Shown piece by piece: positions 10,442-57,929 of a DNA stretch of 64,000 bases; the first letter of the stretch is position 1, and each line of letters starts with the position of its first letter. The stretch comes from a virus. The position numbers were made by a program, and so were the translations under genes. Under the pieces are notes generated by a model. That model was not told the origin of the DNA and ran no database searches. It worked only from the letters and a program-made list of their open reading frames with translations. Location of the stretch: IMG/VR virus record IMGVR_UViG_3300045988_110202, positions 1-64,000 of that record. One strand, written 5' to 3'.

Positions 10442-11902
10442 TTAGAACTCACGGTAATCTGCTGGCTCTGGTGTTCCAAGACTTTCATTATCTGTAAACT
10501 CTACTTCTTTATCTTCAGAAACAAAATCTTTCAACATCTTTGCAAGATCAACACCTGTAGATCCTTTAACACCATCTGATACCTGATTCACAACATTCAT
10601 AATATCTTTTGTTAATTTTGTTGTATTTCCTTCTCCATACATAGTAATGCTTCCTACATTACCTAATGGCGCAGCTGCATTTTTAACTGCTTCTGGGAAC
10701 ATCTGGCACATCATTTCTACGATAGAAGCTTTACCCATCTGTTTCATAGCTTCAGCTTTCTTCTCAATAGCTTCTGCTTCAGCAATACCTTTTGCTTTAA
10801 TCGCCTCAGCTTCTGCTACACCTTTTGCTCGGATACCTTCAGCTTCCTGTTCCATAGCATATTTTGTAGATTCAGCTTCTTTTTCTTTAGCATATTTATT
10901 TGCTTCTGACTCTTTCTGTCTCTTATATAAATCTGCATCTGCTTTCTGCTGAGAAGCATATCTTTCAGCCTCTGCCTGTTTCTTGATCTGTGCATCTAAT
11001 GTCTGCTCTGTTACCTCAACGTCTTTGCGTTTCAATTCAATTTCTTTTTCCTGACGCATAATATTAGCATCCGCAGTTACAACTTCAATTTCTTTACGTG
11101 ATTTTTCTTCCTGAATCTTGTATGCTGCATCTGCCTCAGCCTTCTTTGCCTTTGAAATCTTCTCAAGTTCAGATTTTTTAATCTCCAGATTATTATTCTT
11201 TTCTGCAATCGCTGTTTCTGACTCGACTCTTGCATCATTCGCTTCTTTTTCAGCCATTGCTTTTGCTTTTTCAATATCTCTTTCGCTTTCAGCTCTGGAA
11301 ATCGCAGCCTTCTTCTGAATTTTAACAACATTATCTACACCAAGATTTTCAATAACATCATTATCATCCATAAAATTCTGCACATTAAAACTGATAATAT
11401 CTAATCCCATTGCAGCAAGGTCTGGTTTTGCATTTTCTGTAACAAGCTGTGCGAATTTCTGACGATCGGAAACCATTTCTTCGAGACTCATCTTTCCAAC
11501 GATCTCTCGCATATTACCTTCAAGGACTTCTCTTGCGACCTGTCCAATATCGCCTACTGGCTTATTTAAGAAGTTTTCTGCTGCAAGTTTTAATCTTTCT
11601 GGATTACTGCTAACCTTTACATTGACCGCTGCATCTACATTGATATTGATATAATCTGCTGTAGGCACAGAACTTGATGTCTTAACATCAATTGGAATTA
11701 ACTCAAGATTAAGATGATCTGCTTTTTCAAAGAATGGGATTTTTAACCCTGCCTTACCAATTAATGTCTTAGGTGTCTTTCTAAGTCCAGAAATAATATA
11801 AGCTTTATCTGGACTTGCTTTGACATAACCGCTACCGATAATAGCTCCTACGCCACCTACCGCAATAACCACTGGTACCACTGTTCCAATTACTTCAATC
11901 AT
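10442..11902 (-). CDS. SPFH/band-7 flotillin-family protein (FloT/YqiK-like)
   Basis: 486 aa; N-terminal TM, SPFH-like domain, then a long Ala/Glu/Lys-rich coiled coil with 'AEAEAIKAKGIAEAEAIEKKAEAM' flotillin-type repeats. Confidence 0.75.
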   Translation of the reverse strand: MIEVIGTVVPVVIAVGGVGAIIGSGYVKASPDKAYIISGLRKTPKTLIGKAGLKIPFFEKADHLNLELIPIDVKTSSSVPTADYININVDAAVNVKVSSNPERLKLAAENFLNKPVGDIGQVAREVLEGNMREIVGKMSLEEMVSDRQKFAQLVTENAKPDLAAMGLDIISFNVQNFMDDNDVIENLGVDNVVKIQKKAAISRAESERDIEKAKAMAEKEANDARVESETAIAEKNNNLEIKKSELEKISKAKKAEADAAYKIQEEKSRKEIEVVTADANIMRQEKEIELKRKDVEVTEQTLDAQIKKQAEAERYASQQKADADLYKRQKESEANKYAKEKEAESTKYAMEQEAEGIRAKGVAEAEAIKAKGIAEAEAIEKKAEAMKQMGKASIVEMMCQMFPEAVKNAAAPLGNVGSITMYGEGNTTKLTKDIMNVVNQVSDGVKGSTGVDLAKMLKDFVSEDKEVEFTDNESLGTPEPADYREF

Positions 11903-12320: not shown

Positions 12321-13283
12321 TTAATTCCCTAATGCAATTAATGAATTTCCACATGTAATTCTGTCTGCGTCTTCTTCTTTCGATGGAACAAATACAATTA
12401 CATCCCAACCGTCTTTTACAAGTGGTTGTTCAAATTTTTCATATACGTCAAAATCTGTTACAATCTCATATCCTTCGTCAACTGCTTCAACTGTTTCATG
12501 AATAGGAGTAATCTTGACAATGCATTTTTCCTTATCGAAATACTTGTTCATCAAATCTACGTCTAAATTACTTTTGGATGTAACAGCAAAATTCAATGTA
12601 TACTTACGCTTCTTTGGCATTGGCAACCAATCAATAATGCCTCCGATCTCTGTTAAAGATAATGAACATCCTCGAAACATTTCATTTCTTTGTTCTTCAT
12701 TAAGAGTATTGATAGAAAACTGAAGACCAAAGCCATCTTCTCCGCCATATTCGAATCCAGTTTTAACCCATTTATGTAAAAATTCTTTTAAATTATTATT
12801 TGCCTTTGGCATCATTGTAGAAATTACTGGATGATATGTGTTGAAATGTATATCACTGTCTGGATCTGCTAACATATGTGCAATCTGTTTAGCCGAAGCA
12901 ATTACATTTTGATTAAATGTAGGTTCTCCCATTCTTGCATAATGTACATTTAATCGTTCTCCATGTCTGATTCCTGATAAAGCAATTCCAGAAGTGATCT
13001 CCATCATTAACTCTGGCAACGATGCATTTCCTTTAAATCCAAGTTTAGGGCAATCACAGAAATTGCAATGCATCGGGCAACCTTTCTGCGACGAAACAGT
13101 CACAACTAATTTTTCTCTAATATCAACTGGTTTATGTTCAACTTTTTCAATTCGTTTATCATACCCAAGAAAATCTGCCTTAATGTTGTTTTCCTTGCCA
13201 TAATCACCAACGAATAAGTATTCTAATGTTAAATCTGTATCGGAGATAATTTCTCCTGTATGTGTGTCTGTAATCTGTCTCAT
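12321..13283 (-). CDS. radical SAM enzyme
   Basis: 320 aa; 'GCPMHCNFCDCP' = CxxxCxxC cluster motif; 'MGEPTFN' glycine-rich SAM-binding-like motif; no SPASM-type extra Cys cluster. Confidence 0.7.
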   Translation of the reverse strand: MRQITDTHTGEIISDTDLTLEYLFVGDYGKENNIKADFLGYDKRIEKVEHKPVDIREKLVVTVSSQKGCPMHCNFCDCPKLGFKGNASLPELMMEITSGIALSGIRHGERLNVHYARMGEPTFNQNVIASAKQIAHMLADPDSDIHFNTYHPVISTMMPKANNNLKEFLHKWVKTGFEYGGEDGFGLQFSINTLNEEQRNEMFRGCSLSLTEIGGIIDWLPMPKKRKYTLNFAVTSKSNLDVDLMNKYFDKEKCIVKITPIHETVEAVDEGYEIVTDFDVYEKFEQPLVKDGWDVIVFVPSKEEDADRITCGNSLIALGN

Positions 13284-19700: not shown

Positions 19701-20195
19701 ACATCACTGCTACTAAAAACATATACAAACGTGTATATGCTAGATGATTCGCTACAATCTCTCGATTTATAGTTACTGCTTCAACGTATATGCTTTTGAT
19801 GATATAAATATCAATCTACTCACAAGTTCTTGTACACTCCACAGTCGTAAATTCCCGACTTAGCCATCGGTACACATCTGTAAATTCATATATTTGATTA
19901 GATACAGATTTCATCTAAATAGCTTTTCCTTTCCTAATATTTTACGTTTTGCTACTTGGTTTTCGTAGACTTATACCATTACTCAATTACAACCATCAAG
20001 GTTCTACCCTATAGTTAACAAGACTATTTCAACTCGCACTGGTCTATATTTCCTGTAATTTCAGTGGTTTTAAGTTACCAACTAGTGTTTTGGATTTTAA
20101 ACACCTTTGAGATTGTTTACTCACATTTGTTTACGTTTTTGGTTACATATGAAGCACTCCTATATTTAGTTGTATTTTTTGGAAAAATTTTCATG

Positions 20196-48095: not shown

Positions 48096-49419
48096 TAGAA
48101 TGGCAAACACAGGATATGTACCAATTTTAACAGTGCATCAAAATCAAAATATCGAATTGGCAGATAAAGTAACCGATCAGATTGATGAGATGTTTCGAGA
48201 TGTTAATGTATTGATTACTCAGAATGAAGTAAATCAAGTAATAACATCTCTTAGTATGTTGATAAAAGTAAATGATACTTCATTCTACTTCCCAACAATT
48301 TTAAAGTTTCGAAATTATGATGACGATAATCCATTAAGAGATAAGATTAAATTATCTTCAAGAGATATTGAATATTTATCTCAGATTAAAGTTTTTTATG
48401 GCGAAGTTTTTGAAAGTTTACAAACATTAAAAAATCATAAATGTAAATTTATCAAGTGTACATTCGAATTTCCTTGTACTATACGAGTTTCTAATTTGAA
48501 TTTTACAGTATCATTAAAGACGTCTTTTTTTGATAAAAATAATGACTATATGTTAATCACATCTGACTTAATTGATGCAAGAATCATTCGTACAGATCGT
48601 GTGCGTATTACAAAACATATAGAATACACACTGCAACGCCTTGACGATATTGATCAAAGATATGGTGTTTGGAAATCATTATCAAAACTAAAAAAAGACA
48701 TAAGTAAAGATGAGAAATTGTTTGTTTCGGTAAAAAATATCGTTGAGACACTACGTGTATATGAAAATAAATTTAATTGCGAACCATATTCATTGCAACT
48801 TAGCATTGATGAATTTTCAACAAGAGGCGTGAATATTTCTTTTACATATAAAAAATTTATTATAAGTAAAATTCGTTTAGAAAATCATATTGTAGATATT
48901 GAAGAATTTAGGGATTCAATTTATGAGGCATGGGAAATTTTCAAAGATAGATTTTTATATCTAATGGAAAACAATATATATAGTGTTTTTGAAGAACTCG
49001 TGAATTATTTGAATAAATCGGCAAACAATTTGTGGACAGCAAATATTGTGGTCGAGCCATTTATGATTTATTTGCATGTTGAAGTAAAGCATAACGTGCT
49101 CCATGACTGTATTTACGATATCAAAACACAGAAACCATATTTGCCATGGTACGAAATTGATACGCAGATTCAGAATATAAGCAATGAAATGACTTTTCAT
49201 GCAGACATTCCTTTGATTTCTAGTGATTTGTTTAATCCAGATGGGTTATTGAAAATTACAAATACTTTTTTATATCAATGGAAACAACCTCTACCTAATA
49301 CCAATTGGAAGCAATACGTTGCCAATGAACTGTCAAATTGTATAATCGAAAAAATTAACACATCTGATGAGATGCCAATCCGATTCATCGAAAAGAATAC
49401 AAAGGAGAGTTATGAATGA
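48088..49419 (+). CDS. hypothetical protein (443 aa), translationally coupled to the RNAP-like gene
   Basis: stop TGA overlaps the ATG of 49416 (ATGA). Confidence 0.5.
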   Translation: MISRMANTGYVPILTVHQNQNIELADKVTDQIDEMFRDVNVLITQNEVNQVITSLSMLIKVNDTSFYFPTILKFRNYDDDNPLRDKIKLSSRDIEYLSQIKVFYGEVFESLQTLKNHKCKFIKCTFEFPCTIRVSNLNFTVSLKTSFFDKNNDYMLITSDLIDARIIRTDRVRITKHIEYTLQRLDDIDQRYGVWKSLSKLKKDISKDEKLFVSVKNIVETLRVYENKFNCEPYSLQLSIDEFSTRGVNISFTYKKFIISKIRLENHIVDIEEFRDSIYEAWEIFKDRFLYLMENNIYSVFEELVNYLNKSANNLWTANIVVEPFMIYLHVEVKHNVLHDCIYDIKTQKPYLPWYEIDTQIQNISNEMTFHADIPLISSDLFNPDGLLKITNTFLYQWKQPLPNTNWKQYVANELSNCIIEKINTSDEMPIRFIEKNTKESYE

Positions 49420-52301
49420 CAAAAAATATTAATACTAATCCATTGCAAATCCCAAGCATTGATGCAAAAGATTTGTATATTTCAAATCATCAAATTTCTG
49501 AGAACGAAGAGAGTGCGAAAGGGTACTCTCTTCTAAGAAAGACGGATCATGGATTTAAACCGAATTTGAAAAAATATATTAACACATATGACTTCAGCCT
49601 AGATTTAATTGAATTAAGAAACTATGTTGCCAGTAACGGGAAAAATTTTGGAATTGGTAAAAAGGTTTTTTCATTTTTCGATGAACATGACAATACCAAA
49701 GAATACAGTAATATGGTAATAAATGTTACATTTAACTATAGCGTAAAAGAATTTAACAGAATCAAAGTTGATACATATATGAAATTTGGATACGAATTAT
49801 CTAAAAATGAATTCAAAAATTGTATTTGTAAAGATACTTCAACTGGAGAAGTCATAGGTGTCAGGACAGATCGATGGATAGATAAAAGGCTCATGTGTAA
49901 TAATTTGCCTCCACAATTTTGTTATAAAGAAGAAGTTGATGAAGAAACTTCTGTTCATAAAATTATGTATATTTTAAAAACATCTACTAATAAAACCATT
50001 GTTGACGTAGCCACTTTAAGAAATATTTTATATAAAGAGGGATTTAAATGTGATGGTAGAAATTATGTAAGATTTAAAAGATCGTCAGGAAGTAGCCGTG
50101 TTGGCAAGTGTTTGTTTATTGAAAAGAATTTATCAAAACATATGCAAAAATGGGGACTGTGTGGACTTGAAGTAAAAGATGGAGAAGAAATTGATCTCGC
50201 AGCCCTTGAAGCATATATTGCTCTTCCAACAAGTAGTATCATTGATGTTATTGAAATCGATCCAAAATCAATTTTAATCATTGGTGATTATGAAAGTGTT
50301 TTTAATGATACTGTGATTGAGACAACGATTGGCAATGACGGTTGGCTTCATACAGATGAAAAAACTATTGAAATACATAACTCAATTTGGGATGGACAGA
50401 GTTTGATTGATAAATCTGTTATGGAGGAATATTCTAGTTACGGAATGCTTCTTTTAAGAAATAAATTTTTTAAATCATGTTGTTTCAATACAAATATTCA
50501 AAAATGGTTTCATGATAATAATATTACGGAAATTTCACAATTAAATGGTTTTACATTCGCAACCGATGTATCTGAAATTAAGATGATCACGACTCCAAAC
50601 AGCGTAAAATATCTGAAATTTGGATCAATGGAACAATGGCTAAACAATTTACCAAGTATGTTCGGAGTTGTAAAACATGAGAAAAAAACACATTTTTTTG
50701 ACGGACAAATGGTTCAGTGTCATTATCAGTTATTAAATACATTACAATTATCAAAAAATGACGTAGAAGAATTTTTACAGCCATCTTTTGATTATATGAA
50801 CAAACTTAACACCGATATTGATGTCTTTAAATATCATATTAAATGTCAGGCATTGAAAGATGAAAACCCAAAAAATATGAACGACATTATTTATACTATG
50901 TTAAATATATGCCCAGATTTCGAACGTACGGAAATATTTTTGAATTTCAAAAGATCGTTGATAAAGGCATACCGCAAAAATTTAAAAAAGGGACATGTAC
51001 TTGTCAATGGTAATTATTCTGTATTATTTGGAAATCCGATCGAAATGTTGAAATCTTCTATTGGTGAATTTAATCCAACTATTTCGACTTTAAACAAAGG
51101 AGAAATATATAATACTAGATTTTTAAACGATCAGGAATTGTTGTGTTGTAGAAGTCCACATGTCACAATTGGCAATATTCTTGTAGCAAAGAATACTCGT
51201 GTTAATGAAATTGATACCTATTTTAATCTAACTGATGAAATTGTTTGCTTAAATTCAATTAACGATAATATTTTAGAACGGTTAAGCGGATGCGATTTTG
51301 ATTCAGATCAAATGTTGATCACAGATGATCAGATTTTGTTGAATGCAGCCAAAAAAAATTATTCTGTATTCAAAGTTCCAACATCGAATGTTCATGCAAG
51401 AAAAGCTAAACGATATTTTACACCAGAAGATCAGGCAGACCTTGACATTCGTACAAGTAATAATTTGATTGGAGAAATTATTAATCTATCACAACAATTA
51501 AATAGTCAGCTGTGGGATAAAGCTAACAATAGTGAAAAAAGTATTCAAGAATTATATGATACTGACAATGTTTTTCGAAGACTGTATTTTGATATTTGCC
51601 AGTTGGATGTTATGTCTTGTATTGAAATTGATAAAGCAAAAAAAGAATTTGAAATTGATTCCAAAGCTGAGATTAAGCGTATTCAAAACAGGCACATTAA
51701 ATTAGATAAAGAAACTGGATTAAAACAACAAGCTCATTTTCTTGGAGTAATTTCTCAGATAAAAGGGTACGAAGACAAGAAAAATGTAGTATATAAATTA
51801 TGTAAAACCACTATGGATTACCTTGAGGAAACGATTGATGATTTTAGTCCAGCAAGACGTAAAAATAAAAAGATATTACTTTCAAGTTTATTCAAACCTA
51901 AAAATTTTAACAAAGAGTTAATTATAAAACCACAAATAACTTTAATTTTGAAACAACTTGATACATTGTATACGTCTTTGATTCAAATTATGAAGTTAGA
52001 TAATTATACTTATTCTTATAATGTAAAATGTAAAATGATTCAAAATAAGAAATTTGAAACATATGAATTGTTAAAAAAATATACAATTAATCAACATACT
52101 ATGTATCGATTACTAAAATATATAGACAACGATAAAATTACAGCAAAAAAATATTTATTTGAATTTTTGTTTTATTATTCAGATTTAATCAAAGAATATA
52201 AAAATAAACTTTGTGTGCGTAACGTAAATCTACGTGTTCAAAATGAAACTAATGAATATGATGTTTCCTTATATGGTATGAGATTTAAGAAAGAATTTTA
52301 G
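49416..52301 (+). CDS. putative non-canonical RNA polymerase (YonO-like, multisubunit-RNAP beta-prime DPBB catalytic motif)
   Basis: 961 aa; 'RSPHVTIGNILVA...ILERLSGCDFDSDQMLITDD' aligns with the universal beta-prime 'RHPSLHRLGIQAF...[21 protein letters not shown]'; RBS AAAGGAG. Confidence 0.55.
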   Translation: MTKNINTNPLQIPSIDAKDLYISNHQISENEESAKGYSLLRKTDHGFKPNLKKYINTYDFSLDLIELRNYVASNGKNFGIGKKVFSFFDEHDNTKEYSNMVINVTFNYSVKEFNRIKVDTYMKFGYELSKNEFKNCICKDTSTGEVIGVRTDRWIDKRLMCNNLPPQFCYKEEVDEETSVHKIMYILKTSTNKTIVDVATLRNILYKEGFKCDGRNYVRFKRSSGSSRVGKCLFIEKNLSKHMQKWGLCGLEVKDGEEIDLAALEAYIALPTSSIIDVIEIDPKSILIIGDYESVFNDTVIETTIGNDGWLHTDEKTIEIHNSIWDGQSLIDKSVMEEYSSYGMLLLRNKFFKSCCFNTNIQKWFHDNNITEISQLNGFTFATDVSEIKMITTPNSVKYLKFGSMEQWLNNLPSMFGVVKHEKKTHFFDGQMVQCHYQLLNTLQLSKNDVEEFLQPSFDYMNKLNTDIDVFKYHIKCQALKDENPKNMNDIIYTMLNICPDFERTEIFLNFKRSLIKAYRKNLKKGHVLVNGNYSVLFGNPIEMLKSSIGEFNPTISTLNKGEIYNTRFLNDQELLCCRSPHVTIGNILVAKNTRVNEIDTYFNLTDEIVCLNSINDNILERLSGCDFDSDQMLITDDQILLNAAKKNYSVFKVPTSNVHARKAKRYFTPEDQADLDIRTSNNLIGEIINLSQQLNSQLWDKANNSEKSIQELYDTDNVFRRLYFDICQLDVMSCIEIDKAKKEFEIDSKAEIKRIQNRHIKLDKETGLKQQAHFLGVISQIKGYEDKKNVVYKLCKTTMDYLEETIDDFSPARRKNKKILLSSLFKPKNFNKELIIKPQITLILKQLDTLYTSLIQIMKLDNYTYSYNVKCKMIQNKKFETYELLKKYTINQHTMYRLLKYIDNDKITAKKYLFEFLFYYSDLIKEYKNKLCVRNVNLRVQNETNEYDVSLYGMRFKKEF

Positions 52302-54080: not shown

Positions 54081-54440
54081 TTTACCATATTATAAAACAT
54101 TGCACCTTGCGTGCCCAACAAGAAATGAAGTGATCCGACTAAGATCGGTGGATTTAGGCTATTAGCTGATAAAAGAAAACACAAATCGTTGAAAGAGTGG
54201 TGCCGAAGTACAAGGTGGATCTCGTGTAGAAACTTGCGATACTCTAATCCAAGGTGTTTTGATCGCACAAAGAATGTGTGTCTTTTTATAGAGTGGTCTA
54301 CAAAAATTACACAATTAAGTGTATGGCATATTCTGGAAATGTTATATTTCGCTTATTGTATGGATAAGTATGCCAAAAGTGAGGAGGAATCACTCACTAA
54401 AATTTGTGTTAGTTTTGTTGAAATTAATACAGATACAGAA

Positions 54441-54533
54441 TGTACGGGTGGCAGAGCTGGTTTAATGCGCAGGATTGCTAATCCTGTATACGTACGAATA
54501 TGCGTATCCTGGGGTCGTAGCCCAGTCCGTACG
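54441..54533 (+). tRNA. tRNA-Ser (GCU), class II
   Basis: acceptor GTACGGG/TCCGTAC, anticodon arm CAGGA-TTGCTAA-TCCTG, variable-arm hairpin ATACG..CGTAT, T-arm CTGGG-GTCGTAG-CCCAG, discriminator G. Confidence 0.6.
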
Positions 54534-54539
54534 CTAAAT

Positions 54540-54614
54540 CGCACCATCGTCTAAATGGTTTTAGGACACATCCCTTTCACGGATGCAATACGAGTTCGAC
54601 TCTCGTTGGTGTGA
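54540..54614 (+). tRNA. tRNA-Glu (UUC)
   Basis: acceptor CGCACCA/TGGTGTG (one G-U), D GTCT/GGAC, anticodon arm CATCC-CTTTCAC-GGATG, T-arm ACGAG-TTCGACT-CTCGT. Confidence 0.6.
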
Positions 54615-54654
54615 TGTTTGTCCTACAATGTTCTTCGGACTTGTGGGCCAATAT

Positions 54655-54738
54655 CCCTGTTTATACTGCTAAGGAGACAGGCAAAACTGTAAATTTTGCG
54701 GCTTCGGTCACGAGTGGGTTCGATTCCCTCAACAGGGA
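54655..54738 (+). tRNA. tRNA-like, Tyr (GUA)-type class II candidate with an irregular D region
   Basis: acceptor CCCTGTT/AACAGGG perfect, anticodon arm CAAAA-CTGTAAA-TTTTG, T-loop TTCGATT; 4 nt instead of 2 between acceptor and D-stem; U-U mismatch in the T-stem. Confidence 0.4.
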
Positions 54739-54952
54739 TGATTAGGTTAGTAACTATACGATAGATTAACCAAAAAATATGCGAACACCCTGATGGTTGG
54801 TGGATATTGGAATGTATACCTCTTCTGATATTCTGATGGAGTTCATCACTTCAGTTCGCCCTAGAAAAGCAATACTTACACACTGTTGCTTTTTAGAAAT
54901 ATGTATTGTCTCGCCAGTGTGTACGTATGAGAGGCAAATACATATTCGTTAT

Positions 54953-55026
54953 TGACATGTAGCTCAATTGGACAGAGCACAACGCTACGGACGTTGGTGT
55001 TGCAGGTTCGATTCCTGTCGTGTCAG
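54953..55026 (+). tRNA. tRNA-Arg (ACG)
   Basis: acceptor TGACATG/CGTGTCA, D GCTC-AATTGGACA-GAGC, anticodon arm CAACG-CTACGGA-CGTTG, T-arm GCAGG-TTCGATT-CCTGT. Confidence 0.65.
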
Positions 55027-55029
55027 TTT

Positions 55030-55113
55030 TCCTATATACCTCAGTTGGCAGAGGGTCATCACAGCAAGGATAACATTAGATGAAAGTCGCTGGTTCGAAT
55101 CCAGCTGTAGGAA
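55030..55113 (+). tRNA. tRNA-like gene with an 18-nt anticodon loop (11-nt expansion); identity unclear
   Basis: acceptor TCCTATA/TGTAGGA, D CCTC-AGTTGGCA-GAGG, anticodon stem TCATC/GATGA perfect but loop ACAGCAAGGATAACATTA, T-arm GCTGG-TTCGAAT-CCAGC perfect. Confidence 0.45.
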
Positions 55114-55119
55114 TTATAT

Positions 55120-55192
55120 TCTCGTATAGCTCAACTGGTAGAGCGGATGGCTGTTAACCATCATGTCGGAGGTTCAAATCCTTCTACGAGAG
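55120..55192 (+). tRNA. tRNA-Asn (GUU)
   Basis: acceptor TCTCGTA/TACGAGA perfect, D GCTC-AACTGGTA-GAGC, anticodon arm GATGG-CTGTTAA-CCATC, T-loop TTCAAAT. Confidence 0.7.
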
Positions 55193-55782
55193 TTTGTATT
55201 TTAAACATAAGCAACTCGGTTATAAAACTCAATGCCATGAGTCCGAGAGATATTCTAGGCACATATGTCGAATTGGAGAGATACATTGTACGGATACGTT
55301 CTTTGTGTCTCTTTTTATGTCGGAGTGATCTGATATGGACAAGAGAGAAACTCTCAAGCAAATGGATATTGTGCAGCATTTTGGTCTGGTTAACGCACAG
55401 AACTTTTCGCTACAATAATAGACGCTCCTGTGGAGAATAATCCACTTCAATGCGTACTCTGGCAGGTACGTAAAAGGTGGAAAAGCCAAATAATGTAGTT
55501 TGATGTGAATCTGTTCAAAAGACAGTGTATAAGAAAAGTCGCTGGTATGTCGCTCAAGTCAGTTAAGGGTAAGTTCAAATTTATAAAAACATTCTAAAAC
55601 TTAATTCTGAACGGTGGGTTGACATTGCATGTATTGATCATGTCATAGAACTGGTTTTTTAGACTTAGGTAAGAAGTTAGAGGTCGCTCCTCGAAGCTCA
55701 GACTTATCTACTATGTTGCAGAATAAACTGTTCCACAAATGACTGTAAGGTGAAGACCTGCTTTAAAATTAAAATACATTTA

Positions 55783-55854
55783 AGGGGTATCGCCAAGTGG
55801 TAAGGCACAGCACTTTGACTGCTGTATTCACTGGTTCAAATCCAGTTATCCCTG
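55783..55854 (+). tRNA. tRNA-Gln (UUG)
   Basis: acceptor AGGGGTA/TATCCCT, anticodon arm CAGCA-CTTTGAC-TGCTG, T-arm ACTGG-TTCAAAT-CCAGT. Confidence 0.6.
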
Positions 55855-55855
55855 T

Positions 55856-55930
55856 CGCAGAATGGAGAAGTTTGGTTATCTCGTCAGGTTCATGCCCTGA
55901 AGATCGGTGGTTCAAATCCACCTTCTGCTA
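55856..55930 (+). tRNA. tRNA-Met (CAU) with a C1-U72 mismatch at the top of the acceptor stem
   Basis: acceptor CGCAGAA/TTCTGCT (6 bp plus a 1-72 mismatch), D GAGA-AGTTTGGTTA-TCTC, anticodon arm TCAGG-TTCATGC-CCTGA, T-arm GGTGG-TTCAAAT-CCACC. Confidence 0.55.
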
Positions 55931-56002
55931 TTTTTCTAGGTTTCATTTTATTTTTCATATAGTATCCTTTATTGGTAGGGACATTTATGTCCTTACCAAT
56001 AT

Positions 56003-56078
56003 TGCACAGTGGAAAAGTTGGTAAATTCGCTCGTTCCATTTGGTTCTGGAGACGTAGGTTCAAATCCTACCTGTGCAA
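56003..56078 (+). tRNA. tRNA-like gene with a non-canonical anticodon arm (best fold gives an 8-nt loop TTTGGTTC)
   Basis: acceptor TGCACAG/CTGTGCA perfect, D-loop AGTTGGTAA, T-arm GTAGG-TTCAAAT-CCTAC perfect; no standard 5-bp/7-nt anticodon arm can be drawn. Confidence 0.4.
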
Positions 56079-56082
56079 TCAA

Positions 56083-56110
56083 AGAGCTGTTTGGTGGTCA
56101 GTTCTTTTTT
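56083..56110 (+). terminator. rho-independent terminator
   Basis: AGAGCTG-tttggtggt-CAGTTCT followed by T6. Confidence 0.5.
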
Positions 56111-56177
56111 CAACAAAGATTTTTTCTCATTGTTAGCATATAGTGGATGGATATTAATTCATCCACTACTCCTTTCT

Positions 56178-56249
56178 GCTTCTATAGCTTAACGGAAAAG
56201 CAAAGCCCTTCTAAGACTTAGAGTGTAGGTTCGAATCCTACTAGAAGCT
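56178..56249 (+). tRNA. tRNA-Arg (UCU)
   Basis: acceptor GCTTCTA/TAGAAGC perfect, D GCTT-AACGGAA-AAGC, anticodon loop CTTCTAA, T-arm GTAGG-TTCGAAT-CCTAC. Confidence 0.6.
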
Positions 56250-56489
56250 TTCCTATCCAGTATATATGTACGACGACTGCTATATGCAGCGTCAAGCATC
56301 ACTGGAAATATTTTAAGAATGGAGGGATCTTCTATAATTAAGATCACCAAAAATGAAGCTTTTTATCTTCGCTCAAAAGGATTCAAGGACAAATCTGATA
56401 TTCATCAGACGTATTCTGGACATCCTACTTACTATGCAAGTGAGAAAAGAAGCGTAATGAAAGCTCTAAAGAAATATAGAGAAAGATAG

Positions 56490-57929
56490 GTGTTCTCTAT
56501 GAAGAAAAAACAAAACAATATCAGAGTATCATTTGTAGATGAACCTGCTGCCATGGATGTTACTGGTTCTATGGTTTATGTAAAAACAGATACTCACAAT
56601 ATTTTGATTGATGCTGGCTTACATCAGTCAAATAGTAAATACGATGATTTTCTTGTAAATAAGAGAAGATTCAAAGAATTTAAGCCAAAAGACATTGATT
56701 ATATCTTTATTTCCCATCTCCATGCGGATCACGTATTTTTAAGCCCAAGATTATATAAAGAGGGATGTTCTGCAAAAATTATTGTTGCACAAGACAATTA
56801 TCGAATTATGCATCGAATGGCTGAAGATTCTGCTTATATCATTGAAAGAGATATAGAATTAATTAACAATCAACATGGGAAGAATTATGAACCATTGTAT
56901 ACTATTGAAGATGTAGAACGTACAATGAATTATGTTTCTGAATATCCTGTTATGGAAAAGATTGTTGTTGATGACACTTTATCATTTATGCTTATTCCAA
57001 ATGGACATTTGCTTGGTAGTGTACAAATTTTATTGTATCTCAAACAGAACAATATTGAAAAGACATTACTGTTCACAGGAGATATTGGAAATTCTAAAGT
57101 ACATAATTATTACGTCAATAAGTTTACTCCTGTTGATCATGCAGATTTAGTCATTGGAGAATCAACTTATGGGGATCGCCCAGATTTAAAAACTGGACAA
57201 AAAGAAAGAAATAATGATATCGAAAAATTATTTTCTATTATTACACAACAGGTATGCGAAATGCATGGACAGGTAATTATACCAACTTTCGCAAATCACA
57301 GACTCCAATTTCTTACAACAATGATTTACCAGGTCATGAAAGATTATGATTTTCCTTATAAAGTATATATTGATACACCGTTAGGAATTGATATTTTCAA
57401 CGAATATCGCAAAATCTTATCTGGCGATGAATTAAAATTGTTTGATGAAGTCCTAAATTGGGACAACTTGATATTTGTGCGTGACGCAGAATCCAGTAAA
57501 GCATTGGTACATAGCAATGAACCATGTGTAATATTATCTACGTCTGGAATGTGTAATAATGGTAGAATTAGACACCATTTGAAAAAAGCAGTTCCAAATC
57601 CTAATGCTACTGTTCTATTTGTAGGATTCAGTACACCAGGAAGTTTAGCTGCATTACTTAAAGACAAAAATGTTAAATCTATCTCTATAGATAATAAACA
57701 ATATACTTGTAGATGTGCAAGTTTCTCACTCAAATCTCTTAGTGGACATGCTCCATTCTGCCAACTTCTTGATTACTACTCTTCTATTAACACAAATCGA
57801 ATTGTATTACATCATGGATCAGAAAAAGCAAAGTTAACATTAAAAGAGAAATTAACTTCTGAACTTGAAAAGAAATGCAAAAGTACACGAGTTATTATTG
57901 CAAATTCAAGTTTGAAAATTTCATTATAG
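56490..57929 (+). CDS. metallo-beta-lactamase-fold beta-CASP-type nuclease (RNase J/CPSF/Artemis-like)
   Basis: 479 aa; 'ISHLHADHV' (HxHxDH), 'NGHLLGS', 'FTGDIGN', C-terminal 'LSGHA'; the true start is possibly the ATG at 56499. Confidence 0.6.
   Translation: MFSMKKKQNNIRVSFVDEPAAMDVTGSMVYVKTDTHNILIDAGLHQSNSKYDDFLVNKRRFKEFKPKDIDYIFISHLHADHVFLSPRLYKEGCSAKIIVAQDNYRIMHRMAEDSAYIIERDIELINNQHGKNYEPLYTIEDVERTMNYVSEYPVMEKIVVDDTLSFMLIPNGHLLGSVQILLYLKQNNIEKTLLFTGDIGNSKVHNYYVNKFTPVDHADLVIGESTYGDRPDLKTGQKERNNDIEKLFSIITQQVCEMHGQVIIPTFANHRLQFLTTMIYQVMKDYDFPYKVYIDTPLGIDIFNEYRKILSGDELKLFDEVLNWDNLIFVRDAESSKALVHSNEPCVILSTSGMCNNGRIRHHLKKAVPNPNATVLFVGFSTPGSLAALLKDKNVKSISIDNKQYTCRCASFSLKSLSGHAPFCQLLDYYSSINTNRIVLHHGSEKAKLTLKEKLTSELEKKCKSTRVIIANSSLKISL

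Follow-up and report, generated by a model that had tools for sequence, protein, structure and literature searches.

The interval 54442-56249 of the 64,000-nucleotide (nt) sequence analysed here, positions 1 to 64,000 of the IMG/VR virus record IMGVR_UViG_3300045988_110202 (hereafter the window), is a tRNA and non-coding-RNA island of an SPbeta-like human-gut phage of ~160 kb. Within it, a tRNA-shaped gene at 55030-55113, in which an 18-nt loop takes the place of the anticodon loop, looks like a maintained RNA whose anticodon arm has another use. We place about even confidence in the proposition that this gene and a second aberrant one at 56003-56078 would be non-decoding as encoded, and that the former is maintained for a role other than decoding. 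The locus as a whole is of an ordinary kind, namely the tRNA/ROOL island of a large human-gut phage, and the conserved large-loop gene is an unusual variant within it.

ARAGORN places ten tRNA-shaped genes in the interval, all on the plus strand, and none elsewhere in the window. Eight of the ten pass the gathering score (29 bits) of the Rfam tRNA model RF00005 with 40-70 bits and E-values of 1e-6 to 1e-15, which within 1.8 kb is far above chance expectation. The initial annotation of this DNA had recognized a tRNA array with aberrant members, and this is borne out by both programs. Of the three genes that it set apart as odd, the large-loop gene and a tRNA-Tyr fall below the threshold of the covariance model and 56003-56078 lies above it; the failure on tRNA-Tyr is a limitation of the model. 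Related loci were obtained by a search with the protein encoded at 56490-57929, which returned 47 IMG/VR loci at 91-100% identity on contigs of ~140-170 kb, and with a DNA pattern, which recovered 33 human-gut metagenome contigs. Counts of array content were taken over 40 complete arrays of related phages, and individual loci are cited by number (L001 and so on).

The large-loop gene was defined by its minimum-free-energy fold and its conservation across related arrays:

55030-55113, plus strand: tRNA-like RNA with a class I cloverleaf.

Its acceptor stem (55030-36 with 55106-12), D stem (55039-42 with 55051-54) and T arm (55089-55105, its loop of the UUCRANY type) are perfect and stand in cloverleaf order, nucleotide 73 is A, and the cloverleaf is the minimum-free-energy fold. 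The anticodon stem (55056-60, UCAUC, with 55079-83, GAUGA) carries an unpaired 18-nt loop, ACAGCAAGGAUAACAUUA, at 55061-78, instead of a canonical loop of 7 nt with U33 and a purine at position 37; in two variants the loop has 16 or 17 nt. RF00005 reports no match to the gene even at E<=10 with permissive filters. Across 15 distinct gene sequences 99.7% of the cells are paired, with compensatory changes at pairs 6:67, 7:66 and 50:64, and every stem substitution is compensated except for one D-stem mismatch in one variant. All fetched loci together hold 27 distinct versions of the gene with its flanks and only seven loop types. Five of these are 18 nt long and vary at loop positions 2, 3 and 9 (position 9 being G, U or C); in the 17-nt and 16-nt types the centre is replaced, the ends ACA...CAUUA and the 5-base-pair (bp) stem remaining unchanged. 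Types A and B of the gene (the latter with the 16/17-nt loop) have identical anticodon stems and loop ends though 5 of 17 T-arm positions differ. The gene is found in 39 of the 40 arrays, while ROOL, tRNA-Asn, the Pro-like gene at 56003-56078, tRNA-Pro and the last slot come and go. Hence the earlier description of an 18-nt loop on a perfect 5-bp stem stands, and the expansion is real and heritable at 16-18 nt; of the excision that had been proposed to go with it there is no sign.

ARAGORN names this gene a class II tRNA-Leu(CAG) and, when run with intron detection, still does so. We reject the identity: it entails A33 and C37 and an anticodon stem only 72.6% paired, one pair of the required fold never forming and another being broken in 5 of the 15 sequences. 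It is also unlikely because CUG is rare in the phage, at 73 of 11,413 codons. A candidate open reading frame (ORF) starting at an AUG in the stem of the gene was likewise rejected, as the downstream sequence is not conserved between arrangements.

The array around this gene is fluid. Its constant members are tRNA-Tyr and tRNA-Arg(ACG), each in 40/40 arrays, and tRNA-Met, tRNA-Gln and the 18-nt-loop gene (39/40). Slot 2 is taken by Glu-UUC or Ser-UGA; tRNA-Asn occurs in 31 arrays, before or after the 18-nt-loop gene, and is absent from the others; ROOL is found in 18; and the last slot holds Arg-UCU, Thr-UGU or Lys-UUU. The slot after tRNA-Met contains the Pro-like gene in 17 arrays, a normal tRNA-Pro(UGG) in at least 8 and a 910-nt insert with an HNH endonuclease in 12. 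The last of these is exemplified by L001, in which a 186-amino-acid (aa) HNH homing-endonuclease ORF at 4987-5547 lies in the slot of the window's Pro-like gene, as it does in 11 other arrays. In L024 and L052 we found a chimeric tRNA with the 5' part of tRNA-Met and the 3' part of the Pro-like gene, joined in the T-loop sequence common to both, GGUUCAAAUCC; this is a direct demonstration of a recombination route to hybrid tRNAs. The end of the island is marked by two hairpins, the first read from the sequence and the second from a scan for terminator-like elements:

56083-56110, plus strand: terminator-like hairpin of 7 bp with a 9-nt loop, followed by a T run, directly 3' of the Pro-like gene.
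56141-56168, plus strand: 12-bp hairpin preceding the last exchangeable tRNA slot.

Their placement suggests that the last slot is a separate unit of transcription or recombination.

The second aberrant gene occupies one of the exchangeable slots:

56003-56078, plus strand: tRNA-like RNA whose anticodon region, CUCGUUCCAUUUGGUUCUGGAG, lacks a canonical arm (Rfam, 44.5 bits).

Its score comes from the acceptor, D and T arms, and the Rfam alignment skips the anticodon arm, where 18 nt stand in place of the 15 expected. Its acceptor and T arms belong to tRNA-Pro(UGG), and they are combined with a weak, foreign D arm. L022, L039 and ~20 other fetched loci (some from the same contigs) have a normal tRNA-Pro(UGG) in this slot; the two genes are nearly identical in their acceptor and T arms, and the anticodon stem of the normal one covaries (CCUGA/UCAGG versus CAUGA/UCAUG). 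The initial annotation held that the window's gene can only form an 8-nt loop and likened it to quadruplet-decoding or frameshift-suppressor tRNAs. Such a loop, UUUGGUUC, can indeed be drawn on a 5-bp stem (56034-38 with 56047-51), but only in a shifted register that separates the D from the anticodon stem by 5 nt and leaves 2 nt for the variable region, and the arm does not form part of the minimum-free-energy fold, in which the anticodon arm is missing altogether. Besides the single window-type sequence there are five other alleles, all of which pair CUCGC with GUGAG around a 12-nt loop. The two registers are incompatible: an allele of one kind can form no more than 3 bp of the helix of the other.

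Frameshift suppressors of the classical sufA/sufB kind derive from tRNA-Pro and have an 8-nt loop. The gene at 56003-56078 resembles those of the sufA6/sufB2 type in deriving from tRNA-Pro(UGG) and in that its drawable 8-nt loop keeps UUUGG; it differs from them in the shifted register, the 2-nt variable region, the 12-nt loop of its relatives and the exchangeability of its slot with tRNA-Pro or an endonuclease. It does not present an otherwise canonical arm with one extra loop nucleotide kept by selection. The quadruplet or frameshift-suppressor interpretation therefore conflicts with what the relatives have at this position, and nothing specific in the sequence would favour it. As the alleles have no fold in common and the slot may equally be filled by a normal tRNA or an endonuclease gene, the gene is most simply read as a probable relic, namely a dispensable and probably degenerate recombinant of tRNA-Pro(UGG) in which the anticodon arm has been scrambled. 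The ARAGORN call of tRNA-Trp(CCA) was rejected, given its non-canonical loop and a forced stem with one Watson-Crick pair; genuine tRNA-Trp genes with a CUCCAAA loop do occur in relatives (L128 5987-6062 and L029). Together with its terminator the gene also gives a sub-threshold match (32.6 versus 52 bits) to the Streptococcus tRNA-like small RNA SpF41, in which the hairpin at 56083-56110 is aligned as the terminator part.

Apart from the island, the window holds one further tRNA-shaped gene, detected by Rfam (44.6 bits) and by ARAGORN with intron search:

9484-9622, minus strand: tRNA-shaped gene whose anticodon loop holds a 68-nt insert.

It had been reported earlier as an interrupted tRNA, and it is one. 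The insert is A+U-rich, predicted to be unstructured and single copy in the window; it contains CUACCUCC and is flanked by the imperfect direct repeats ACAUAAAU and ACAUAUAAAU. Its length is 66-69 nt in each of the 31 relatives with a fetched locus that reaches far enough, the locus of a 32nd (L112) ending before the insert, so that this expansion too is heritable. An origin like that of a miniature inverted-repeat transposable element was considered; the single copy of the insert may speak against it, although direct repeats flank the insert. The ARAGORN intron call for this gene, a tRNA-Tyr(AUA) with an intron at 32/33, is implausible, and a small antisense ORF running through the gene was rejected since the downstream sequence is not conserved between arrangements. 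Near it lie an SPFH/flotillin-like protein (Band_7, 85 bits) at 10442-11902 on the minus strand and, at 12321-13283 on the same strand, a weak radical-SAM match (20.8 bits, under the cut-off).

A relative at 73% protein identity, L128, has at 6124-6203 a tRNA-like gene (30.2 bits) with a perfect 5-bp stem and a CU-rich loop of 15 nt, CUUUAGUCCUUUCCA. A long variable arm is normal only in class II tRNAs (Ser, Leu and bacterial Tyr). In the more distant relatives L136 (4962-5044) and L135 (7849-7931), respectively, 83-nt genes for tRNA-Asn(GUU) and tRNA-Thr(UGU) have an extra GAAA-capped hairpin in the variable region. With the interrupted tRNA and the 15-nt-loop gene of L128, these indicate that non-canonical tRNA-shaped genes recur in this phage group. 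At ~7355-7409 L128 also has an apparent tRNA-like element without any anticodon arm.

It is possible, though on balance we doubt it, that both aberrant genes of the island are functionless pseudo-tRNAs, by-products of recombination that have not yet been purged and that serve at most as passive sites for RNase P and RNase Z. The high mosaicism of the array, with its chimeric tRNAs and homing endonuclease, is what such an explanation would lead one to expect, and the Pro-like gene, dispensable and lacking a consistent fold, suits it well. Several observations on the 18-nt-loop gene also support it and weigh against a maintained function. All copies come from one closely related lineage whose flanking protein is 91-100% identical; on account of this shallowness the compensatory changes amount to few events, and the near-universal presence of the gene could reflect shared ancestry. 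Nucleotide diversity (0.068 for the 18-nt-loop gene and 0.051 for the Pro-like gene) resembles that of the spacers, not lying below several of them (0.04-0.15), a comparison that, owing to mosaic alleles, says little about selection. The one exceptional array, L029, has a canonical tRNA-Trp in place of the gene. Neither a complementary (antisense) site for the 18-nt loop within the 64-kb window nor a canonical ancestor among the 202 distinct tRNAs of all fetched loci was found. What speaks against mere debris is the retention of the gene in arrays that have often lost genuine tRNAs and ROOL, the compensation of all stem substitutions but the single D-stem mismatch, the constancy of the stem and of the loop ends between types A and B in spite of their T-arm differences, and the second instance of a large loop on a perfect stem in the more distant phage L128. 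On these grounds we favour a maintained non-decoding RNA for 55030-55113.

The proposal of the initial annotation, that the enlarged loops are removed or remodelled after transcription or else alter decoding, appears to us improbable. In one conceivable form of altered decoding the Pro-like gene would act as a +1 or quadruplet decoder, and the large-loop genes would read as Ile or Met by way of an NAU triplet that adjoins the 3' flank of the loop. Several features do invite such ideas. The expansions are conserved, and they are confined to the anticodon loop, the cloverleaves being perfect in all else; the loops of 55030-55113 and 9484-9622 have ACA at the start and CAU(A)UA(A) at the end in common; the former has a wobble-like position with the alleles G, U and C in front of AU; the Pro-like gene retains the UUUGG of the Pro-UGG loop, which recalls the 8-nt-loop sufA and sufB suppressors; and a ribonuclease-type gene adjoins the array. 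The extra nucleotides in the anticodon loops of 55030-55113 and 9484-9622 are likewise reminiscent of intron-containing tRNA genes, whether of the bacterial group I or the archaeal bulge-helix-bulge kind, but the catalytic core, the Rfam intron match, the helix and the loop-restoring junction of such genes are all missing. A group I self-splicing core takes over ~200 nt, and the inserts, 9-11 nt in the 18-nt-loop gene (11 nt in the window) and 68 nt in 9484-9622, are too short for one. No match to Intron_gpI (RF00028) was obtained in the window at the gathering score, nor in 54400-56300 at E<=10. Both enlarged loops are predicted to be unpaired, and by inspection no 4-bp helix of a bulge-helix-bulge can be drawn at their borders, nor does any joining of the loop ends give a canonical loop with U33 and a purine at 37. 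The idea that these tRNAs need excision thus finds no footing in the sequence. On the decoding side, the 8-nt loop of the Pro-like gene depends on the shifted arm with its 2-nt variable region, close relatives having a 12-nt loop and other arrays a normal tRNA-Pro or an HNH gene in its place; there is no recoding signal; and the beta-CASP gene next to the array also occurs without neighbouring tRNAs. Enlarged anticodon loops have been reviewed elsewhere (PMC5009743).

Two more specific functions can be envisaged for the enlarged loops. One, which we regard as unlikely, is that the 18-nt-loop gene, the interrupted tRNA at 9484-9622 and the 15-nt-loop gene of L128 form a natural class of tRNA-scaffolded phage RNAs with the enlarged loop as the working part. 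The tRNA body would then provide for maturation by RNase P and RNase Z, for the addition of CCA and for stability. The loop could either lure host defence enzymes that target tRNAs or, as a single-stranded seed, bind to rRNA or to ribosome-binding sites. Two of the enlarged loops carry CU-rich runs resembling an anti-Shine-Dalgarno sequence, CUACCUCC and UCCUUUCC, and one carries AAGGA. The other, very unlikely in our estimate and conceived purely by analogy, is that the aberrant RNAs are anti-defence decoys that would soak up anticodon nucleases with a loop that cannot be productively cleaved. To our knowledge neither such a nuclease nor a target of one has been described for this host, and the sequence of the loop is unlike that of any known nuclease substrate. 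The cassette-like exchange of slots (Arg-UCU/Thr-UGU/Lys-UUU and Glu/Ser-UGA) is as expected of an arms-race locus, and the unusual G37 of tRNA-Met would also fit. There is a precedent in the proposal that phage tRNAs evade anticodon nucleases through changes in the anticodon loop (PMC10264068). The decoy is, however, a special case of a maintained non-decoding RNA and not a true alternative to it.

The array contains a second kind of non-coding RNA, which the initial annotation overlooked and which matches its Rfam model over the full length (model positions 1-574 of 574):

55191-55779, plus strand: ROOL RNA (RF03087), 308.8 bits versus a gathering score of 99.1, E-value 1e-71.

In the window it fills the gap that separates tRNA-Asn from tRNA-Gln. 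Six independent contexts were compared, the window included; in two of the others the flanking nuclease gene is only 73% identical. In each, ROOL begins at 0-4 nt from an upstream tRNA-shaped gene, which may be tRNA-Asn, Ile-GAU, Glu-UUC or the 16/17-nt-loop gene, and in each it is followed downstream, after 1-4 nt, by tRNA-Gln. ROOL and GOLLD RNAs have been described next to phage and prophage tRNA islands, and ROOL typically lies near them (Weinberg et al. 2017, PMC5737381; Kretsch et al. 2025, PMC12286853); the full-length ROOL in a phage tRNA island seen here agrees with this. The passages of these two papers on the subject do not state the arrangement found here, in which ROOL is butted at 0-4 nt between tRNA-shaped genes with tRNA-Gln always downstream. 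Among the relatives, L137 has at 2552-3053 a GOLLD-like RNA near its tRNAs in place of ROOL (131.7 bits, under the cut-off of 150), and L128 a near-threshold match to skipping-rope RNA at the head of its array (5907-5984, 36.3 versus 36.7 bits).

On the best reading overall, to which we would give an even chance, the interval is an operon of non-coding RNAs punctuated by tRNAs in an SPbeta-like phage. The genes, lying head to tail on one strand with gaps of 0-5 nt in places, would be transcribed as a few precursors, and host RNase P and RNase Z would cleave these wherever a tRNA-shaped unit occurs. Because ROOL is always butted between two tRNA-shaped genes, it would be freed by the same cuts, and its tight flanking fits release by RNase Z and RNase P at the neighbours. 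Eight members would be decoding tRNAs that match the commonest A/U-rich codons, among them the class II tRNA-Tyr and an initiator-marked tRNA-Met. The remaining two keep the acceptor, T and D arms, that is, the parts for processing and for the elbow, with an anticodon arm seemingly unable to present a normal anticodon. The gene at 55030-55113 would be a maintained non-decoding tRNA-like RNA, a tRNA body carrying the invariant 5-bp stem and a loop of 16-18 nt, which might serve as a decoy, as a signal for processing or as a stable scaffold that displays the loop to a partner, be it protein or RNA; that at 56003-56078 would be the dispensable and probably degenerate recombinant of tRNA-Pro(UGG). 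The mosaicism of the island would stem from recombination between conserved T-loops and from a visiting homing-endonuclease gene. As a tRNA-shaped unit needs only its acceptor/T module for the cuts, a processing role could explain why aberrant members keep those parts; it leaves the invariant anticodon stem of 55030-55113 unexplained.

Non-decoding RNAs that are tRNA-shaped or tRNA-linked are known from the stable RNAs of the phage T4 tRNA cluster (species 1 and 2, rnaC and rnaD), the TMERs of MHV68 and the mascRNA of MALAT1, which have RNase P/Z recognition and tRNA-like stability. The present genes show no sequence relationship to rnaC/rnaD, TMERs or mascRNA; in them the cloverleaf is complete and the enlargement is confined to the anticodon loop, and the processing is a prediction. 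The dense same-strand run, the anticodons matching common codons and the variable content are shared with the tRNA clusters of T4, T5, mycobacteriophages and large Firmicute phages. Unlike those, this island has two members with apparently non-decoding anticodon arms, one of them in the conserved core, as well as ROOL and a further folded RNA.

The seven tRNAs that had been folded by hand in the initial annotation all have canonical 7-nt loops in the Rfam alignments, and their identities hold (RF00005 scores in brackets; all are also found by ARAGORN):

54442-54533, plus strand: tRNA-Ser(GCU), class II with a long variable arm (40.3 bits).
54540-54614, plus strand: tRNA-Glu(UUC), in a slot that holds tRNA-Ser(UGA) in sister phages (52.4 bits).
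54953-55026, plus strand: tRNA-Arg(ACG), in 40/40 arrays (59.5 bits).
55120-55192, plus strand: tRNA-Asn(GUU), abutting the 5' end of ROOL (69.9 bits).
55783-55854, plus strand: tRNA-Gln(UUG), starting 4 nt past the end of ROOL (64.3 bits).
55856-55930, plus strand: tRNA-Met(CAU) with initiator-like features (56.1 bits).
56178-56249, plus strand: tRNA-Arg(UCU), in a slot that holds Thr-UGU or Lys-UUU in sister phages (66.6 bits).

The canonical tRNAs of the window match the frequent phage codons GAA, AAU, UAU, AGA and CAA, and the frequent codons AAA, ACA and CCA are read by tRNAs of sister phages in exchangeable slots. The tRNA-Met had been called initiator-like on the strength of a 1-72 mismatch, and this is upheld in part. 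In the window positions 1 and 72 are an unpaired C1.U72 in the Rfam alignment. Relatives invariably have U at position 72 and C, U or G at position 1 (giving G.U in two loci), and thus the pair stays unpaired or wobble while it varies. In initiators the D stem has A11:U24, and in elongators a pyrimidine at 11 and a purine at 24; the D stem GAGA/UCUC of the present gene gives A11:U24, the initiator mark, again in the Rfam alignment. The anticodon stem UCAGG/CCUGA (A29-U41, G30-C40, G31-C39) has two of the initiator's three G-C pairs, and the third is missing. Nucleotide 37 is an unusual G in most copies, including that of the window.

The third gene that had been set apart was described as Tyr-GUA-like with an irregular D region:

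54655-54738, plus strand: tRNA-Tyr(GUA), class II, identified by ARAGORN and by covariation.

It has C1-G72, A73, a 7-nt loop CUGUAAA with U33 and A37, and a variable hairpin with a UUCG loop. The irregularities are real: the connector between the acceptor and D stems is 4 nt long (UAUA), a 3-bp D stem abuts a 6-bp anticodon stem without a nucleotide 26, and the T stem has a U.U mismatch. They are conserved in the lineage, the connector being UAUA, UAUC or UAAA and its 4-nt form extending to L128, while the tRNA-Tyr of more distant relatives has the usual 2-nt connector. They do not make the gene aberrant, however. In an alignment of 13 versions, four of them from phages at 60-73% protein identity, 19 of the 24 pairs of the specified structure show compensatory changes, and 88% of the cells are paired versus 36-44% when the partners are slid by 1-3 columns. 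RF00005 gives no match, and the sole Rfam match is to tRNA-Sec, at 24.4 bits versus a cut-off of 47. This is a weakness of the model and not evidence against the gene, which is a genuine class II tRNA-Tyr, well supported and in no need of a special explanation. A tRNA-Sec or allo-tRNA-like reading, suggested by the possible eighth acceptor pair, the 6-bp anticodon stem and the tRNA-Sec match, was rejected because the eighth pair joins nucleotide -1 with A73 and the score is far under the cut-off. The same U(-1)/A73 combination recurs in both other odd genes.

Between tRNA-Tyr and tRNA-Arg(ACG) lies another RNA that the initial annotation overlooked, recognized by covariation:

54739-54952, plus strand: structured RNA without an Rfam match.

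Its 214 nt comprise a 5' hairpin, a four-way junction closed by GCGAAC/GUUCGC at ~54781-54860 and a 3' hairpin. The hairpin at ~54867-54893 keeps the loop UUACACAC with its stem completely replaced between lineages, and some relatives' versions have one extra covarying hairpin and a length of ~250 nt. RNAalifold with 26 distinct versions gives 51 pairs, 12 of them with compensatory double changes. In the 5' 127 nt, 97.8% of the cells are paired, with 7 compensatory pairs, against 27-45% in slid controls. Searches of Rfam at E<=10 returned no family for this segment except a chance-level match to GIR1, and a covariance model built from it (R1) finds copies only in this phage lineage, which limits the depth of the comparison. 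By these covariation data the segment is to be regarded as a folded RNA and not as spacer. Far from the island, a RAGATH-18 RNA (RF03064) was identified at 19773-19845 on the minus strand (73.6 bits versus a cut-off of 44.9).

Directly downstream of the island lies the gene that served as query for the related loci:

56490-57929, plus strand: metallo-beta-lactamase/beta-CASP/RMMBL ribonuclease-type protein of 479 aa (Pfam).

The protein matches Pfam Beta-Casp (88 bits) and Lactamase_B and has the RMMBL C-terminal motif. Its HxHxDH motif (H76, H78, D80, H81) is invariant in 24 homologues, as are other motif residues. The best solved relative is the Thermus ribonuclease TTHA0252 (E-value 1e-38), and Cas14 is also among the closest ones. 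From domains and motif we predict a member of the beta-CASP ribonuclease type (RNase J/CPSF73/TTHA0252). More than 3,000 metagenome homologues exist. The gene abuts a tRNA array down to ~60% identity in several phages; other homologues at ~60% identity have no or one tRNA neighbour, which counts against tying it to the array. Since homologues occur without neighbouring tRNAs, we did not use the nuclease as evidence for a special processing of the tRNAs.

The affiliation of the phage is indicated by a gene upstream of the island:

49416-52301, plus strand: protein of 961 aa matching the Pfam family of eukaryote-type RNA-dependent RNA polymerases (29 bits) and phrog_8308, as does the SPbeta YonO DNA-dependent RNA polymerase.

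Relatives have YonG, YonJ and YonD domains, HU and a ClpP-type protease in matching order. The YonO-type polymerase and the YonG/YonJ/YonD genes of the relatives are the basis for calling the phage SPbeta-like. A DNA search found no close relative among cultured phages, the matches being to generic tRNA only; the nearest cultured homologue of the neighbouring nuclease is that of Clostridium phage c-st, at 29% identity. With the nuclease as query, no prophage copy or host was found in 185,579 species-representative genomes. The host is probably a Clostridia-type Firmicute. As read-through of single stops lengthens ORFs little, raising ORF coverage only from 0.58 to 0.66 (TGA) or 0.65 (TAG), the genetic code is taken to be standard; there is no sign of stop-codon recoding, and suppressor tRNAs were rejected on the same ground.

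For annotation, this island provides a lesson in both directions: ARAGORN gives confident-looking wrong identities (Leu-CAG, Trp-CCA), and a genuine tRNA-Tyr escapes the Rfam tRNA model. For ROOL, an abundant RNA that forms cages, the constant framing by tRNA-shaped genes in these phages offers a directly testable model for how its ends are made, in an operon that holds a further covarying RNA without an Rfam match. The tRNA islands of phages are usually read as codon supplements or as counter-measures against anticodon nucleases. The present array indicates that a tRNA-shaped RNA seemingly unable to decode can be among the most faithfully kept members of a fluid array. If this is true, phages would put tRNA bodies to uses other than decoding, and the tRNA scaffold engineered for the expression of RNAs would have a counterpart in nature.

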